Below are positions 4,481 to 54,127 of a DNA stretch of 64,000 nucleotides, in pieces; the first letter of the stretch is position 1, and every line of letters begins with the position of its first letter. Source of the DNA: Candidatus Sungiibacteriota bacterium (GTDB lineage: Bacteria; Patescibacteriota; Minisyncoccia; Sungbacterales; JACQCQ01). The notes under the pieces were generated by a model, which saw nothing but the letters and a program-made list of their open reading frames with translations, ran no database searches and was not told the origin of the DNA. The DNA lies in NCBI GenBank assembly GCA_016201505.1, contig JACQCQ010000002.1, positions 144,903 through 208,902 on the forward strand, given 5' to 3'. The position numbers and the translations under genes were made by a program.

Positions 4481-5878
4481 TTGTATATAAGTCTAAATCA
4501 TCTGGCTGTGTTTAGTAGAATACAAAAGGTAAGTCTATTATTGGTGCTGGTCATTGGGGCTTCGGTTTTTTCTGCGCCGCAGCTGATTTTCGGCGCAAGT
4601 GGGACCCTGACTCTCGCCGAGCGCGATCAGCTGACCCAGCAGTTAAATCAGCTTGAACAACAGTCTCAAGCCATCGGTCAGCAGATCCAGCAGGCCGCGC
4701 AGCAAGCCCGGTCCTTAAAAAACGAGCTTTCAATTTTAGATAACCAAATCAAGCAGGCGCAAATTGAGATTCGGAGGCTCGACTTGGTAATTCGCCAGGC
4801 TGACGCTGATATTTCCGCCAAGGTTGTATCGATTGAACGAACGAGTTTAAAAATCGGCGATGCCGAAAAACAATTAGCGGCTTCGCTCCGTGAGATTAGT
4901 CAGCTGGATAATGGGAATTTGCTTGAAATATTTTTGAAAAATAAAAATCTGTCCGACTTTTTTACCGCTTTGAATAGTCACGAAAAATTGCAGGCTGCGA
5001 TTAAGGGCAGTCTCGATAATTTAAAAGATTATCGGACTTCACTTGAAAATGAAAAAGCAGAACTCCAGGACTTTCGCGAGGGTCAGCAAGAAGCAAAATC
5101 TATTCAGGAAATCAACAAACGAAATCTTTCTGAAAAACGAAAGGAACGAGATGATTTATTAAAGCAAACGCAAGGTAAGGAGTCGCTCTATCAGCAGCTC
5201 CTAAGGAAAAATAATTCCGCTATCGCGGCTATCAAAAACAAATTGTATTACCTCGAGGAAATCGGCATCACGCCGGAAGAAGCCTTGGCTGCGGCAAAAC
5301 TGGCCTCACGGCGGACAAACATCCGCACGGCATTTCTCCTGGCTCTGCTTGAAGTTGAGACCGGCCGCCAGTTTGAAGACGGTCAATTGACCGTCGGTTC
5401 AAATCTTGGCCGAGGCAATTGGAAAACTGATATGTATGACTGTTATGTGAACTTAGGCAGAGTAAGCACCGCCGAGACGCAAAAGGCGGCCTTCTTTCAA
5501 ATTACGGGCGAGTTGGGTCTCGACCCTGATAAAATGCCTGTCTCACGAAAACCAAATTACGGCTGCGGCGGCGCGATGGGCCCCGCACAATTTATTCCAA
5601 CCACCTGGCTCAAATTTTCCGACCGGGTTGCCAGTCTAACGGGAAAAGGTGTGGCCAGCCCCTGGAATACGGAAGACGCATTCACGGCTGCTGCGCTCTT
5701 TTTGGGCGACGCGGGCGCGACTTCTCAAACGAAAGCCGGGGAGTTTGCTGCAGCGCACATCTATATTAGCGGCCGAGCCAATTGCCCTTCGACCGGCAGC
5801 GCCAGGGTCGCTTGTATTTCCTATGCCAACCGCATCTATTCGCTTTCGCAAGATATCGAACGCGCCTTAGAAACTTAA
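4481..5878 (+). CDS. secreted or membrane-anchored coiled-coil protein with a C-terminal lytic transglycosylase (MltB/SLT_2-like) domain
   Basis: N-terminal hydrophobic segment, a long Q/L-rich heptad region, and a C-terminal YGCGGAMGPAQFIPTTW plus DAFTAAALFL region resembling lytic murein transglycosylase B. Confidence 0.5.
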   Translation: MYISLNHLAVFSRIQKVSLLLVLVIGASVFSAPQLIFGASGTLTLAERDQLTQQLNQLEQQSQAIGQQIQQAAQQARSLKNELSILDNQIKQAQIEIRRLDLVIRQADADISAKVVSIERTSLKIGDAEKQLAASLREISQLDNGNLLEIFLKNKNLSDFFTALNSHEKLQAAIKGSLDNLKDYRTSLENEKAELQDFREGQQEAKSIQEINKRNLSEKRKERDDLLKQTQGKESLYQQLLRKNNSAIAAIKNKLYYLEEIGITPEEALAAAKLASRRTNIRTAFLLALLEVETGRQFEDGQLTVGSNLGRGNWKTDMYDCYVNLGRVSTAETQKAAFFQITGELGLDPDKMPVSRKPNYGCGGAMGPAQFIPTTWLKFSDRVASLTGKGVASPWNTEDAFTAAALFLGDAGATSQTKAGEFAAAHIYISGRANCPSTGSARVACISYANRIYSLSQDIERALET

Positions 5879-7464: not shown

Positions 7465-8259
7465 ATGACCTTAGCCGAAATGGATCTGAAAAGCGAATTG
7501 AGTCCGGACGAAGAAATCCAAACCCTTATGAAGGCCGGGGTGCATATTGGGCATGTAAAATCCAAAACTCATCCGGCTATGCGACCTTTTATCTTTACGA
7601 CCAGAAATAACGTCCAGATCATTGATGTTTTAAAAACGAAGGAGTTTTTGGTAAAAGCCGAGGCCTTTTTAGAGAGCGTCCGGGCTCGCGGGGGACTTAT
7701 CCTTTGGGTCGGCACTCGGCCATCGGCGCGGGTTGCGGTTGAACAAGCCGCCAAGAAAACCAGTATGCCCTACGTTACCACGCGCTGGACGGGAGGACTC
7801 TTAACAAATTTCCGCGTGATCTCGAAGCGAGTGCAAGACATGGAGGAGATTGAACGCCAGACGCGTGACGGCGAACTGGAGAAGTACACCAAACAAGAAC
7901 GCGCTCGCATCAATGATGAATATCAATCGCTCGTAAAAGTCCATGACGGTCTCCGCCTCTTAAAAAAGATGCCGGATGCGGTGATTATTATTGACACCCT
8001 GCAGGACAACCTGGCAGTCAATGAAGCGCGAAAAGTCAGAATTCCGATTGTCGCTCTTTCTGACACCAATACCGATCCGAATCTGGTTACCTATTCTATC
8101 CCATCCAATGATGATGCCAGACTCGCCGTCGGCTATATGACTGAACGCTTGGCCGAAGCAATTTTGGAAGGTGCTGAAGAGGCCAAGCGAGTCGAAGCGC
8201 TCGCAAAAGCCAAAGCGGAAGAAGCCAAAGCCAAAGTACAGGAGGAATTGAAAGCATGA
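7465..8259 (+). CDS. rpsB: 30S ribosomal protein S2
   Basis: GVHIGH motif. The start is chosen at MTLAEMD rather than the upstream in-frame ATG. Acidic/Lys-rich C-terminal tail. Confidence 0.85.
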   Translation: MTLAEMDLKSELSPDEEIQTLMKAGVHIGHVKSKTHPAMRPFIFTTRNNVQIIDVLKTKEFLVKAEAFLESVRARGGLILWVGTRPSARVAVEQAAKKTSMPYVTTRWTGGLLTNFRVISKRVQDMEEIERQTRDGELEKYTKQERARINDEYQSLVKVHDGLRLLKKMPDAVIIIDTLQDNLAVNEARKVRIPIVALSDTNTDPNLVTYSIPSNDDARLAVGYMTERLAEAILEGAEEAKRVEALAKAKAEEAKAKVQEELKA

Positions 8260-8372
8260 TCCCGTTAGAAACCGCGACGCGATCGTCAAACGATGAAGAA
8301 AATATGATGAAATGTAAAATCAATAGCCTAATGCAGACACCGCGTAGGGTCGCGATCTGCTTCTAACGGGAT
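8259..8372 (+). repeat. CCCGTTAGA-bracketed element (a): ATCCCGTTAGAAACCGCGACGCGATCG ... GGTCGCGATCTGCTTCTAACGGGAT, exactly filling the rpsB-tsf spacer
   Basis: Terminal inverted repeats read from the sequence. The ends are near-identical to element b1 at 45601-45694 but the interior differs. Confidence 0.6.
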
Positions 8373-8955
8373 GACACTAGGAGAGACAATTAAGGAGCTT
8401 CGGGTAAGAACCGGAGTTTCGGTTATGGAATGTAAAAAGGCGCTTGAGGAGGCGGGCGGCGATTTAGCGGCTGCCGAGAAGATTCTCGCGGGTAAGTTCG
8501 GCGGGATGGCGGCGCGTAAAGCCGCGCGAGAGGCGCGTGACGGCGTGATTGATGTCTATTTACATCCCAATGCAAAGATAGGGGTAATTCTTGAACTTAA
8601 TTCCGAGACTGACTTTGTGGCCCGAAACCCGGCGTTCAAGGACCTGGCGCATGACATCGCGCTTCACATCGCAGCCATGAATCCCAGGTATCGGGCGACA
8701 GAAGACATTACGGCTGATGTTAAGGCCAGAGAACGAAAAGACATCGAGGCCGAAGTGGCCAAAATGGGGGAATCGGGAGTTCTGGCAAAAAATAATGTAG
8801 CCGAGAAACTGTCTTTGCGGCTTCAAGAAATCTCGCTGATGTCACAGCCTTTCATCAAGGATCAAAATAAAAAAATTTCAGATCTGATTGAAGAGGCAAT
8901 CGGCAAGTTCGGGGAAAACATTAAAATCGGCCGGTTCACGCGCTACTCAATTTAA
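8371..8955 (+). CDS. tsf: translation elongation factor Ts (short form)
   Basis: 194 aa. N-terminal UBA-like ELRxxTGxxxMxCKKAL signature. Confidence 0.85.
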   Translation: MTLGETIKELRVRTGVSVMECKKALEEAGGDLAAAEKILAGKFGGMAARKAAREARDGVIDVYLHPNAKIGVILELNSETDFVARNPAFKDLAHDIALHIAAMNPRYRATEDITADVKARERKDIEAEVAKMGESGVLAKNNVAEKLSLRLQEISLMSQPFIKDQNKKISDLIEEAIGKFGENIKIGRFTRYSI

Positions 8956-15782: not shown

Positions 15783-16871
15783 ATGAAAACTTTTCTGGTT
15801 CTTTCTTTGGCGGTGTCTTTTCTGGTGGCTGCACCGGTAAAAGCGGCCTATCACTTTTCTGACTTTCGCGGCCGGCCGCCGATTCATGTAAACGGCAGCT
15901 CATCAAAAACACCAAAAGGCATAACGCCGGATCAAATAAAAAAGATTTATAGGTTACCTGCTGGCGGGGGGAGCGGAACGATTGCAATTATCGGCGCCTA
16001 TGATGACCCGTCAATCGAGGCGGACGTAAACGATTTCAGCCGCCAATTTAATCTGCCTGTCTGCACGACGGCCAACGACTGCTTTGAGAAACACAAAATG
16101 AGCCCGTCAATGAAATCGGATAGCGGCTGGGCAATGGAGATAACGCTTGACGCAGAATGGGCGCATGCCGTTGCCCCGCGAGCTAAAATTCTCTTAGTTG
16201 AGGCGACAACGCCGAGCGGCGCGAATTTATTAAAAGCCGTGGACTATGCGGCGAGCCGCAAAGATGCTGTGTCTATTTCCATGAGCTGGGGTGGCGCGGA
16301 ATTTCCGGAAGAGACAACACTTGATTCGCATTTTATCTCTAAATCGGGCGCGGTGTTTTTTGCTTCCTCGGGCGATAATGGCGCCGGTGCTTCATGGCCA
16401 GCCGCGTCCCCAAATGTCATCGGCGTTGGCGGAACATCGCTTCAATTAAAATCAGATGGGACTCTGTCAAAAGAAACCGCCTGGAGCGGGTCGGGCGGCG
16501 GGGTGAGCGCCTACGAGAAACAACCCGACTATCAAACGAACTACTCAATCCCGCGAGCCAAGGGCCTGCGCGCCATCCCCGACGTCGCCTATGACGCTGA
16601 TCCCATCTCGGGCTTTCCGATTATTCGGCTGGGCACTTGGCGAGAAGTCGGCGGGACGTCAGCCGGTGCGCCGCAATGGGCCGCCATCGCCGCACTCTCC
16701 AATGGATTTTCAATTCAAGATCTCTACAAAGATAAAGCCGCCTCGAACTCTGCAAAGTTTTTCCGCGACATCACCAGCGGCTCCAATGGTTCATGCGCGT
16801 ATTACTGCGACGCCCGGAGGCATTATGACTACGTTACAGGGCTCGGAACGCCGCTAACCACGAATTTTTGA
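15783..16871 (+). CDS. secreted serine peptidase, S53 (sedolisin/kumamolisin)-like within the S8/S53 clan
   Basis: Signal peptide MKTFLVLSLAVSFLVAAPVKA. GGTSAGAPQWAAIAAL catalytic-Ser motif of the S53 type, and a conserved Asp region (AIIGAYDD). Confidence 0.55.
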   Translation: MKTFLVLSLAVSFLVAAPVKAAYHFSDFRGRPPIHVNGSSSKTPKGITPDQIKKIYRLPAGGGSGTIAIIGAYDDPSIEADVNDFSRQFNLPVCTTANDCFEKHKMSPSMKSDSGWAMEITLDAEWAHAVAPRAKILLVEATTPSGANLLKAVDYAASRKDAVSISMSWGGAEFPEETTLDSHFISKSGAVFFASSGDNGAGASWPAASPNVIGVGGTSLQLKSDGTLSKETAWSGSGGGVSAYEKQPDYQTNYSIPRAKGLRAIPDVAYDADPISGFPIIRLGTWREVGGTSAGAPQWAAIAALSNGFSIQDLYKDKAASNSAKFFRDITSGSNGSCAYYCDARRHYDYVTGLGTPLTTNF

Positions 16872-21561: not shown

Positions 21562-21670
21562 ATCCCGTTAGAATGCCGCGGGTGGGAGTTGAACCCACAC
21601 ATCCTTTCAGATACACGGTCCTGAACCGTGCGCGTCTGCCAATTCCGCCACCGCGGCATTCTAACGGGAT
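21562..21670 (-). repeat. ATCCCGTTAGAATG ... CATTCTAACGGGAT inverted repeat that extends the tRNA-Leu acceptor stem by 14 bp on each side
   Basis: Read from the sequence. Same terminal words as the CCCGTTAGA elements at 8259 and 45601. Confidence 0.6.
21574..21657 (-). tRNA. tRNA-Leu (anticodon CAG), long variable arm
   Basis: Minus-strand read: GCCGCGGTGGCGGAATTGGCAGACGCGCACGGTTCAGGACCGTG...GGGTTCAACTCCCACCCGCGGCA. No encoded CCA. Confidence 0.8.
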
Positions 21671-26600: not shown

Positions 26601-26625
26601 TGATCCCGTTAGAGAATTAATTATC
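26601..26625 (+). repeat. solo left arm of the CCCGTTAGAGAATTAA-type element (GATCCCGTTAGAGAATTAATTATCGG) in the uvrC/uvrA divergent spacer
   Basis: 17-nt identity to the left arm of element b2 at 45701. No right arm found nearby. Confidence 0.45.
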
Positions 26626-26744
26626 GGCTGTATTTTGGTTGCCAATAATTATTTTACCAAGGGCCGGTTCTGGCTTATAGATCGCGGTTAATTCCCCAAT
26701 GGGATTGAATTCTATTGACAAGGAGAGTAGAATGGAAACCTTTC

Positions 26745-45136: not shown

Positions 45137-45601
45137 TCAAAATGGTATATCTTTCACATCAATCTCATCCTCCGGGTACTGGACCGTGGGCGGCTCTTCG
45201 GCTGGAGCGCCTTGACCTTGACGCGAATCCGTTTCAGCCATCGTTGCCGCGCCCGTATTTTCTCTCTCCAAAGGCCGCGGGCCCATTTGCATTGACTCAG
45301 CGACGATCTCGGTGCGGTAACGCTTCGCGCCACTTTCTTTATCTTGCCAAGAACGGGTCTCAATTCTGCCTTCGACAAATACCAGCCTGCCGCGATTTAA
45401 ATACTGTCCGCAAATCTCCGCCAGCTTTCCCCAGGCTACAATGCGATGGAACTCGGCTTTCTGATTTTTTTCACCCGCTGGCGACATCCAGACTCGATTG
45501 GTGGCCACATCGAATGTACAAACCGATTGGCCAGTTGGGGTTTGTCTCAATTCCGGATCCCGGGTCAAGTTGCCGAGGATCATCGCTTTATTTACATTCA
45601 T
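45137..45601 (-). CDS. ssb: single-stranded DNA-binding protein
   Basis: GTG start. OB-fold (ILGNLTRDPELR), acidic DIPF C-terminal tail. Confidence 0.85.
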   Translation of the reverse strand: MNVNKAMILGNLTRDPELRQTPTGQSVCTFDVATNRVWMSPAGEKNQKAEFHRIVAWGKLAEICGQYLNRGRLVFVEGRIETRSWQDKESGAKRYRTEIVAESMQMGPRPLERENTGAATMAETDSRQGQGAPAEEPPTVQYPEDEIDVKDIPF

Positions 45602-45694
45602 CCCGTTAGAAGCAGATCGCGATCATCCGCGCTATCGCTCGAGTTAAGCTATTAATGTTGAGGAGCTTCATACCATTGTACCCCGTGTATGCGA
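45601..45694 (-). repeat. CCCGTTAGA-bracketed element b1 (CCCGTTAGAAGCAGATCGCGATC ... GCGATCGCGGCTTCTAACGGG) in the rpsF-ssb spacer
   Basis: The ends match element (a) at 8259-8372 in the same orientation relative to transcription. The interior is unrelated. Confidence 0.6.
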
Positions 45695-45700
45695 TCGCGG

Positions 45701-45799
45701 CTTCTAACGGGATTCATCCCGTTAGAGAATTAACTACTAACTCTGTTGCTGGTCTCATGTCTTTATGTGTCGTGAGTTTCATGTTCGAAATGTAGTCTC
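45701..45799 (-). repeat. CCCGTTAGA-bracketed element b2 (CCCGTTAGAGAATTAACT ... ATTCTCTAACGGG), tandem to b1 and separated from it by ATTCAT
   Basis: Terminal inverted repeats read from the sequence. Left arm shared with the solo copy at 26601. Confidence 0.6.
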
Positions 45800-45895
45800 T
45801 GATTCATTCTCTAACGGGATTCATGGTATTAACCGCAAACTTTTACAAACTTTCCCGCTAAGGTATACAAAATTTTTCATATTCCTTTTGTGGTC

Positions 45896-53975: not shown

Positions 53976-54089
53976 AAATCAGACCGGGAATATTGGGAAG
54001 CACTTTATATTTCAATACTAGCACAAGCTGTTTATACCGTTAGATGCCCCATCTTGCTTTCCCCGCACCTCCTCAAATGTCGCTCTTTT

Positions 54090-54127
54090 CCTATAAGTTC
54101 GATAGACTAGTCTATCGGACTTATAGG
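54090..54127. repeat. 38-bp palindrome copy 3 (CCTATAAGTTCGATAGACTAGTCTATCGGACTTATAGG), 18 bp upstream of the hrcA CIRCE
   Basis: Dyad with one mismatch, same core as copies 1 and 2. Confidence 0.7.

Follow-up and report, generated by a model that had tools for sequence, protein, structure and literature searches.

A hairpin-forming, MITE-like element that appears to insert at start codons of Patescibacteria and to rebuild the ATG at its far end

Introduction

Bacterial MITEs (miniature inverted-repeat transposable elements), such as the Correia/NEMIS elements of Neisseria and the enterobacterial ERIC sequences, are non-coding, about 100–150 nt long and combine terminal inverted repeats with a short target duplication; they occur in many copies in transcribed intergenic DNA, where they form a long RNA hairpin within the mRNA (PMC3184786). 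REPINs consist of two inverted conserved repeats around a variable spacer, fold into a hairpin of about 100 nt with compensatory changes and are non-autonomous, their partner being the RAYT, a single-copy Y1 HUH transposase encoded elsewhere (PMC3116915). Another kind of mobile DNA, Tn5397, uses targets that always hold a central GA dinucleotide (PMC4430133). Here we analyze a stretch of 64,000 nt (the window) from contig JACQCQ010000002.1 of a Candidatus Sungiibacteriota bacterium, in which the rpsB-tsf spacer, the DNA before ssb and a tRNA-Leu gene are bracketed by the inverted-repeat arms ATCCCGTTAGA and TCTAACGGGAT. We assign a probability of about 0.78 to the reading that what fills the bracketed spacers is a mobile element, non-autonomous and hairpin-forming, with MITE-like anatomy and a REPIN-like covarying stem, that inserts at start codons.

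Results

The arm pair ATCCCGTTAGA...TCTAACGGGAT occurs at four places in the window, in elements a, b1 and b2 and around a tRNA-Leu(CAG) gene. The inventory comprises three intact elements (105–114 nt), one decayed copy before uvrA and the tRNA-Leu bracket, and is listed here together with the adjoining start codons and an uncertain copy.

8256–8259, + strand: old junction ATGA, in which the ancestral tsf ATG (8256–8258) overlaps the rpsB stop codon TGA (8257–8259)
8259–8372, + strand: element a (S1 subfamily, 114 nt), lying between rpsB stop and tsf start
8259–8269 and 8362–8372, + strand: arms of element a, ATCCCGTTAGA and TCTAACGGGAT
8371–8373, + strand: rebuilt tsf start codon, AT from the element tip and G from the flanking repeat
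21562–21670, − strand: tRNA-Leu(CAG) bracket, the tRNA (21574–21657) being flush with the arms 21562–21574 and 21658–21670
26603–26707, + strand: decayed b2-like copy, left arm perfect, right arm CCCAATGGGAT
45600–45713, − strand: element b1, 114 nt, S1 subfamily, abutting the ssb ATG (45599–45601)
45714–45715, − strand: 2-nt spacer between b2 and b1, GA on the coding strand, a shared direct repeat
45716–45820, − strand: element b2, 105 nt, of another subfamily (AGAGAAT arms), in tandem upstream of b1
45821–45824, − strand: ancestral ssb start ATGA (coding strand ACC-ATGA), 225 nt upstream of the working ATG
54034–54121, + strand: uncertain, strongly decayed copy, ATACCGTTAGA...TCTATCGGACT, lying upstream of hrcA

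The window contains 11 occurrences of the octamer CCGTTAGA or its complement where 1.26 are expected, a count reached by none of 100 shuffles, and the perfect 11-mer ATCCCGTTAGA is present in nine copies; one occurrence of the word, at 5635, falls within a coding region. The final A of the ATGA at 8256–8259 doubles as the first base of element a, whose repeat is 1 nt long (ATG/ATCCC...GGGAT/GA). Element a recurs unchanged in a second, independent assembly of this species (SRR12113410; one assembly compared, for element a only) and is therefore not an assembly artefact. Element b1 has the same orientation relative to transcription. The predicted RNA folds have energies of −39.7 kcal/mol for element a (z = −3.8 versus shuffled sequences), −47.1 kcal/mol for b1 (z = −4.1) and −31 kcal/mol for b2 (z = −4.2). 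The decayed copy at 26603–26707 lies off a start codon in the divergent uvrC-uvrA spacer, 25 nt before the uvrA ATG and with TG on both flanks; its predicted fold (z = −1.6) is the sole exception to the range of −3.8 to −9.2 in the window. A same-species contig from another sample (L129:1–30) ends inside b1 (TGATCGCGATCTGCTTCTAACGGGATGAATG...), an assembly break at the tandem repeat.

A first-pass annotation of the window had been made from the sequence by a model. Its excess of the octamer (about 10 against about 2), its exact filling of the rpsB-tsf spacer by element a and its arms around tRNA-Leu all hold. Several of its details had to be corrected. It had placed b1 and b2 at 45601–45694 and 45701–45799, separated by ATTCAT, beginning at a GTG start codon of ssb and filling the rpsF-ssb spacer. 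The correct limits are those listed above: the copies are 2 nt apart, ATTCAT reads ATGAAT on the other strand (a start codon with the element tip), the real ssb start is the ATG at 45599–45601 on the minus strand, and rpsF ends 70 nt upstream of b2, the elements abutting ssb and not rpsF. The interiors of a and b1, described as unrelated, are partly homologous and alignable in their 3′ halves, and a supposed solo arm at 26601–26625 is one end of the full but decayed element at 26603–26707. A further word noted at 54037 may belong to the decayed copy at 54034–54121, but could be a chance match at that mismatch level, since shuffles yield about ten pairs per window at three mismatches per arm. 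The CCGTTAGA word upstream of hrcA (54020–54050) adjoins CTAGCAC and could be a degenerate CIRCE-like operator, instead of or besides an element remnant.

The family was collected by scanning one genome per species for ATCCCGTTAGA-N70-100-TCTAACGGGAT, which listed at least 119 loci; the copy statistics rest on 137 copies taken from the matches listed. The element is a non-coding, multi-copy sequence of about 92–133 nt with a variable, AT-rich interior between perfect, invariant 11-bp arms (ATCCCGTTAGA / TCTAACGGGAT) that extend to 14 bp in 94–97% of the copies. At the right end (...TCTAACGGG-ATG), the AT of the tip and the next G form an ATG that opens an open reading frame (ORF) of at least 60 codons in 119 of the 137 listed copies (87%). 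Oriented by this gene, the left flank of 130 listed copies reads A (110), T (109), G (108), R (121) and the right flank G, R, A, with A in 118 (91%); base −1 equals base +2 in 108. The consensus layout is ...ATG-R / ATCCC...GGGAT / G-R-A..., with the old ATG on the left and the rebuilt ATG on the right. A 2-bp direct repeat, most commonly GA and then GG, is identical on both sides in 107 of 138 copies with full flanks, ATG and non-ATG sites included. Copies at non-ATG sites also carry 2-bp repeats (TG, CC, CA, TT, AA), the base at −3 being T and that at +3 usually A, and a minority of copies has a repeat of 1 nt or of 3 nt (GCA, GGA, GAA). The fourth base of ATGN, which is the variable base of the repeat, tracks the subfamily (odds ratio 8, p = 0.0015).

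The element has a fixed polarity and a covarying stem. The motif CT-R-Y-Y before TCTAACGGGAT lies in the gene-proximal arm of 57 copies and in the mirror position only in 4, and the internal word YGGGDW is found in the 5′ half in 31 copies versus 5. Stem positions 12–14 are paired in 94–97% of the copies, each with four pair types and 35–40 double changes. Scored on 97 distinct arm pairs, covariation amounts to 0.229 versus 0.087 for shuffled pairs; none of 500 shuffles attains this value, and sliding the partner column makes it collapse. Position 15 shows a recurrent C-T mismatch or bulge on the 3′ side. Read from the sequence, the arms offer TGA and TAG as stop codons where the element is entered, and TAA and TGA where it is left. 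The upstream ORF stops at the TGA of ATGA or at the TAG of the left arm (GT-TAG-A) in 29 of 116 copies, so that an exactly filled spacer is a common outcome at overlapping operon junctions. An integron attC site was considered and rejected: on both strands GTTAGA precedes TCTAAC, the wrong polarity compared with the core-site order RYYYAAC...GTTRRRY of a folded attC strand, and there is no cassette array.

By its proteins the window belongs to the Parcubacteria, close to Candidatus Sungbacteria. Syntenic relatives carry empty sites at three loci. At rpsB-tsf, a relative with a 60% identical Tsf has a 4-nt stop/start overlap without the bracket (GTAGC-ATGA-TCTCA), another has an 18-nt spacer, likewise without it, and L121–123 read GC-ATGA-TCTC and are element-free. 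The corresponding ssb sites, in relatives with 74–75% identical SSB, read CACC-ATGAA-TCTC (L132) and CACAT-ATGAA-TCTC (L130), and the window reads TACC-ATGA-(b2)-GA-(b1)-GAATGTA. Because the empty sites read ATGAA, the first ssb ATG of the window is ancestral and each copy has added itself plus GA. The uvrC-uvrA spacer measures 100 nt in L127, where it has no element, versus 212 nt in the window, where it includes the decayed copy. The tandem junction GGGAT-GA-ATCCC recurs in L051, L074 and L010; tandem copies there and in the window follow from the fact that both junctions read ATGRA again after an insertion. The first-pass annotation had offered a miniature inverted-repeat mobile family as its second explanation, to be recognized by target-site duplications and by presence or absence in orthologous spacers. 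It is this explanation that the data favor: 11-bp terminal inverted repeats, 2-bp repeats on most copies, tandems and three presence/absence loci (rpsB-tsf, ssb, uvrC-uvrA) come together with copies in unrelated contexts across more than 119 species.

These more than 119 species genomes match the exact bracket pattern, for which we calculate about one chance match in 596 Gb. By record titles, nearly all of the matches listed belong to the Patescibacteria or candidate phyla radiation (CPR), among them Paceibacteria, Saccharibacteria, Kaiser-, Nomura-, Campbell-, Zambryski-, Moran-, Kerfeld- and Levybacteria and others. The few matches outside the CPR are from Omnitrophota, Sedimentisphaerales/Planctomycetes (Planctomycetota) and WOR-3, plus two metagenome-assembled genomes labelled Gammaproteobacteria. 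As for a phage vector, just one viral contig matches the pattern. The genes downstream of the copies cover 118 Pfam families and include pheT, ssb, frr, adk, clpP, secG and glycosyltransferases; ribosomal operons are thus incidental, and we reject the specificity for ribosomal-protein operon spacers that had been proposed in favor of the start codon (ATG-R-A) of any gene as target. The ssb start has been hit independently by three different subfamilies. Neither arms nor interiors match Rfam up to E 10, and only tRNAs pass the gathering score in the window. Searches of Rfam and of the searchable literature found no description of the sequence or of start-codon MITEs in the CPR, which is not proof of novelty.

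Some loci show variants of the pattern. In a Campbellbacteria locus (L046:1977–2830), the secY-adk-map tail of the spc operon has an element on two successive start codons, and the second copy (2713–2830) is decayed, with matching changes in both arms (TCCCGTTAGTGTC / GACACTAGCTGGA). Close relatives of the window hold copies in which both tips are altered together, ACCCCGTTAGA...TCTAACGGGGT (ACCCC...GGGGT); these lie at L126:30–127, L127:6387–6508 and L127:21544–21685, at non-start sites and with 2-bp repeats (TG, CC). At L155:93–219 another long hairpin, ATAGGACCTACGCAAATAG...CTATTTGCGTAGGTCCTAT, has AT...AT tips and GAA on both flanks and may represent a second family sharing the same insertion habit.

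At the protein level, the Tsf N-terminus MTLGETIKELR aligns with MISSETVKELR of relatives and the SSB N-terminus MNVNKAMILGN with MNLNKVMILGN. Judged from this conservation, translation must begin at the rebuilt ATG, which gives the following corrected ORFs.

8371–8955, + strand: tsf, with the true ATG at the element foot
45137–45601, − strand: ssb, with the true ATG at the element foot

The public calls for the same species, P0001 and P0241, give a Tsf of 176 instead of 194 amino acids, started at an internal Met, and an SSB of 148 instead of 154 amino acids, started at Met-7. The 14-bp stem begins 1 nt past the old AUG-R and ends with the AU of the new AUG. In element a, an ORF of 36 codons runs from the old ATG to the arm TAA and ends 4 nt before the tsf ATG. 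As a general rule, leader-peptide coupling was rejected: among 92 copies, ORFs from the old ATG stop at the arm TAA in 22, at ATGA in 9 and anywhere in the rest, and length modulo 3 is unconstrained. The leader ORFs within the elements are short and not conserved.

The tRNA-Leu(CAG) bracket differs from the other copies. Its arms and the acceptor stem are predicted to form a continuous helix of about 20–22 bp (fold −75.6 kcal/mol, z = −9.2), and no direct repeat flanks the bracket, which forms a perfect palindrome, TTATCCCGTTAGAAT-GCCGCGG...CCGCGGC-ATTCTAACGGGATAA. In three syntenic relatives (L126–128; RNase J 79–86% identical), tRNA-Leu(CAG) lies between the genes for GPI and RNase J, unbracketed and with other acceptor stems. 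The bracketing is unique, with 1 of 57 tRNAs in the examined loci; a tRNA cargo as a general feature was rejected, as none of the 136 other elements contains a tRNA and none of the 56 other tRNAs has a bracket. The acceptor stem GCCGCGG is also the inner 5′ arm of S1 copies (AGAA-GCCGCGG-TCGC). The bracket could have arisen secondarily, through recombination of an S1 copy with the tRNA gene, or conversion, at this shared GCCGCGG microhomology, which is a guess. In a Sungbacteria relative (L128:9850–9950), fragments like tRNA 3′ halves (...GGGGAGTTCAAATCTCCCC..., ...GGAGGTTTGAGTCCTCTTGCCCACCA) are found 3′ of the unbracketed tRNA-Leu and may be partial tRNA duplications.

Y1_Tnp (Pfam) genes of the IS200/RAYT type are present in 5 of the 119 listed element loci; in three of these loci the distance to an element is within 800 nt.

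L029:3586–4245: Y1 transposase gene
L072:1746–2474: Y1 transposase gene
L102:6902–7615: Y1 transposase gene
L118:2–634: Y1 transposase gene
L005:7038–8000: Y1 transposase gene

The encoded proteins have about 220–240 amino acids and the motifs GEYYHIYNRG, HFHLL and YIHLNP. In 80 metagenome loci with RAYT-like genes, no other shared hairpin flanks these genes. IS200/RAYT-like Y1 genes are common in the CPR, with at least 567 confirmed relatives in a metagenome scan.

Two further features of the window were noted. The inner arms of S1 copies (8275–8285, 8350–8358, 45616–45624, 45691–45699) are built round GCGATCGC / CGCGATCG palindromes; this octamer is that of the cyanobacterial HIP1 repeat, though the host is a CPR bacterium. 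A tRNA-Lys(CTT) of 94 nt called by ARAGORN at 16505–16598 on the minus strand lies inside the ORF 15783–16871 and has no match to the Rfam tRNA model, so it is probably a false positive.

Discussion

We interpret the bracketed spacers as insertions of one mobile element, a reading carried by the observed family membership, distribution, target and duplication, orientation bias, covariation and empty sites. The element would insert into the pentamer A-T-G-R-A, which is overwhelmingly a start codon with the first bases of codon 2, and two bases (GA, then GG) would be duplicated. Because both tips read AT, the old ATG would remain on the left with its old upstream context and a new in-frame ATG would be formed on the right from AT and the duplicated G. 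An overlapping upstream gene would still terminate since the arms carry stop codons, and even essential genes would tolerate the insertion since the ATG is rebuilt at the far end. The bias for start codons could result from target preference together with survivorship in the gene-dense operons of the CPR.

Mobility would be catalyzed in trans by an enzyme recognizing a DNA hairpin or abutted ends; candidates are an IS200/RAYT-type Y1 HUH transposase and a recombinase with a 2-bp core as in Tn5397. The stem covariation, the strict polarity, the variable repeat length and the ATGN base that tracks the subfamily point to an enzyme acting on folded single strands, and the link of the element to IS200-like Y1 genes is suggestive only. 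With regard to a recombinase, the abutted tips GGGAT-GA-ATCCC resemble the target AT-GA-A, and GA dominates among the repeats.

A number of observations weigh against this interpretation. Start-codon occupancy is about 91%, whereas a crude null (target ATGRA, intragenic inserts lost) applied to 1 Mb of element loci yields only about 55% start-like sites (594 versus 490 non-start noncoding sites). Target preference and survivorship may therefore not be the whole story; survivorship is plausible for part of the excess because the start codon is often the only non-disruptive site in a dense genome. The rebuilt ATG has no adjacent Shine-Dalgarno motif and is skipped by gene callers, which apparently explains the mis-called starts of Tsf and SSB. 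No autonomous partner with these arms was found, in that neither the window nor the 119 listed loci have arm pairs 200–4000 nt apart around an ORF, and a phmmer search with resolvase and Hin queries, a weak negative, found no serine recombinase in the window or in about 1 Mb of loci. The direct repeat varies from 1 to 3 nt and its variable base tracks the subfamily, which a fixed-stagger DDE transposase does not predict. The 80 loci with RAYT-like genes (442 kb) contain three elements, each at most 1.2 kb from the gene, and none of these flanks the gene on both sides. In addition, a simple insertion cannot wrap an existing tRNA, and the exact retention of an 11-mer across several phyla is unusual for a selfish MITE.

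Alternatively, as the first-pass annotation had preferred, the brackets could be RNA processing signals, with the stem as substrate of RNase III or another double-strand RNase that excises a small RNA or the tRNA from polycistronic transcripts for host use. All copies in the window lie in transcribed positions, their predicted folds, apart from that of the decayed copy, far exceed those of shuffled sequences, the stem covaries, and the tRNA-Leu bracket extends the acceptor stem exactly. The Correia elements of Neisseria provide a precedent for the cutting of MITE hairpins in mRNAs by RNase III. Still, we regard this explanation as unlikely: interiors are not conserved between subfamilies and have no Rfam family, relatives make do with unbracketed versions of these genes and of the tRNA, a single tRNA among 57 is bracketed, and direct repeats, tandems and diverse contexts are signatures of insertion. 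Cleavage of the stem would moreover part the gene from its upstream context, which is no help to the gene. Cutting of the transcribed hairpin by a double-strand RNase is possible as a consequence of insertion rather than as its purpose.

A host regulatory module would also account for the fixed orientation, the position exactly at the ATG in 87% of the copies, the invariant 11-mer across phyla, the covariation and the excess of start-codon occupancy over the null. Such a module could be a translational operator or thermosensor at the start codon, bound by a conserved CPR protein, that sequesters the AU of AUG and has spread by duplication owing to its usefulness. We consider this rather improbable, as the downstream families show no functional coherence, orthologues in close relatives lack the element, decayed copies are retained away from start sites, regulation gives no reason for tandem doublets or 2-bp repeats, and no candidate binding protein was found. 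Very little speaks for an invertible DNA switch or an intercistronic intrinsic terminator, ideas largely refuted already. Inverted repeats of 11–14 bp round about 90 bp just upstream of genes would suit them, and the abutted arms resemble 11-2-11 recombinase sites. However, 57 of 61 classifiable copies share the same orientation, element a is identical in two independent assemblies, and the serine recombinase search revealed no invertase gene nearby. For an internal promoter, −10-like hexamers are found on the two strands in 75 versus 73 of 116 copies, without strand bias, and no sigma-70-like sites are present. A conserved terminator, which the first-pass annotation had named as a possible source of the shared words, is contradicted by the lack of a T-run and of any terminator-like site; the stem runs into the ATG and the coding sequence.

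In the mRNA, the predicted stem lies between the old and the new AUG. A stable mRNA stem would block the old AUG and hold the new AUG near the old upstream context by looping out. Alternatively, upstream translation would open the stem, or a double-strand RNase would trim it; in each view translation of the downstream gene continues. It is doubtful, but conceivable, that the element is directed to start codons and that its hairpin keeps the gene translatable by loop-out or by a relay across the stem, either of termination and reinitiation or of a shunt-like kind. If this were true, the family would represent a new class of "translation-transparent" mobile DNA across the CPR and neighboring phyla, with arms that could also be co-opted as a tRNA precursor stem.

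The tiny, gene-dense genomes of the CPR/Patescibacteria are thought to be poor in repetitive and mobile DNA, yet one hairpin element occurs in more than 119 species, in many CPR classes and some other phyla, with copies on the initial codon of tsf, ssb, adk, pheT, frr and other housekeeping genes. Duplication of the start codon combined with stop codons of its own illustrates a route for selfish DNA in a genome with almost no spare space. In practice, gene callers misplace the affected starts and assemblies break at copies, and the 11-bp signature offers a simple search key for annotation pipelines and for the population-level tracking of CPR strains.

Comparison with known systems

The precedents for hairpin-bridged starts, bypass and shunting are gene 38 and gene 60 of phage T4, the shunt of cauliflower mosaic virus and the mitochondrial "byps". 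As in these systems, a stable hairpin lies between an upstream initiation context and the real start, with identical AUG-R-A at both stem feet. In contrast to them, nothing here shows bypassing or loop-out, and the identical codons are explained by the duplication upon insertion. With Tn5397 and Tn4451 (PMC4430133) the element shares a central GA at both ends and in the target, and a target that resembles the joint of the ends. These are, however, autonomous elements of 6–21 kb that encode TndX or TnpX and show no hairpin covariation, and no serine recombinase was found near the copies described here.

Derivatives of IS200/IS605 (palindrome-associated transposable elements, PATEs) and their TnpA likewise combine orientation-specific insertion by a short fixed motif with a DNA hairpin, no duplication of fixed length and a flanking base that looks carried by the element. 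However, at the ends of IS200/IS605 the hairpins are separate and subterminal and a long terminal inverted repeat is lacking, the left-flank and right-end motifs usually differ, and in the present family the base after the insertion point is constrained as well (A, 91%). The described RAYT groups associated with REPINs are proteobacterial. The present elements are like REPINs in their paired repeats, variable spacer, hairpin length, compensatory changes and non-autonomy, and IS200/RAYT-like genes are present in some element-bearing genomes. REPINs are extragenic, typically at gene 3′ ends, lack a target duplication and flank their RAYT (PMC3116915), whereas these elements occupy start codons, have a 2-bp repeat and do not flank the RAYT-like genes of the loci compared.

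The overall anatomy is that of bacterial MITEs, with regard to size, lack of coding capacity, terminal inverted repeats, short duplication, copy number, transcribed location and mRNA hairpin (PMC3184786). In contrast to the Correia and ERIC elements, the arms are unrelated, the duplication is GA or GG within ATGRA and not TA, insertion occurs at start codons with regeneration of the ATG, the orientation is fixed, the arms covary, no parent insertion sequence is known, and one 11-mer is common to many CPR classes and other phyla instead of to one genus. In conclusion, the start-codon target with regeneration of the ATG, the fixed polarity, the 2-bp repeat of the GA type and the phylum-spanning 11-bp signature set this family apart from MITEs and REPINs.

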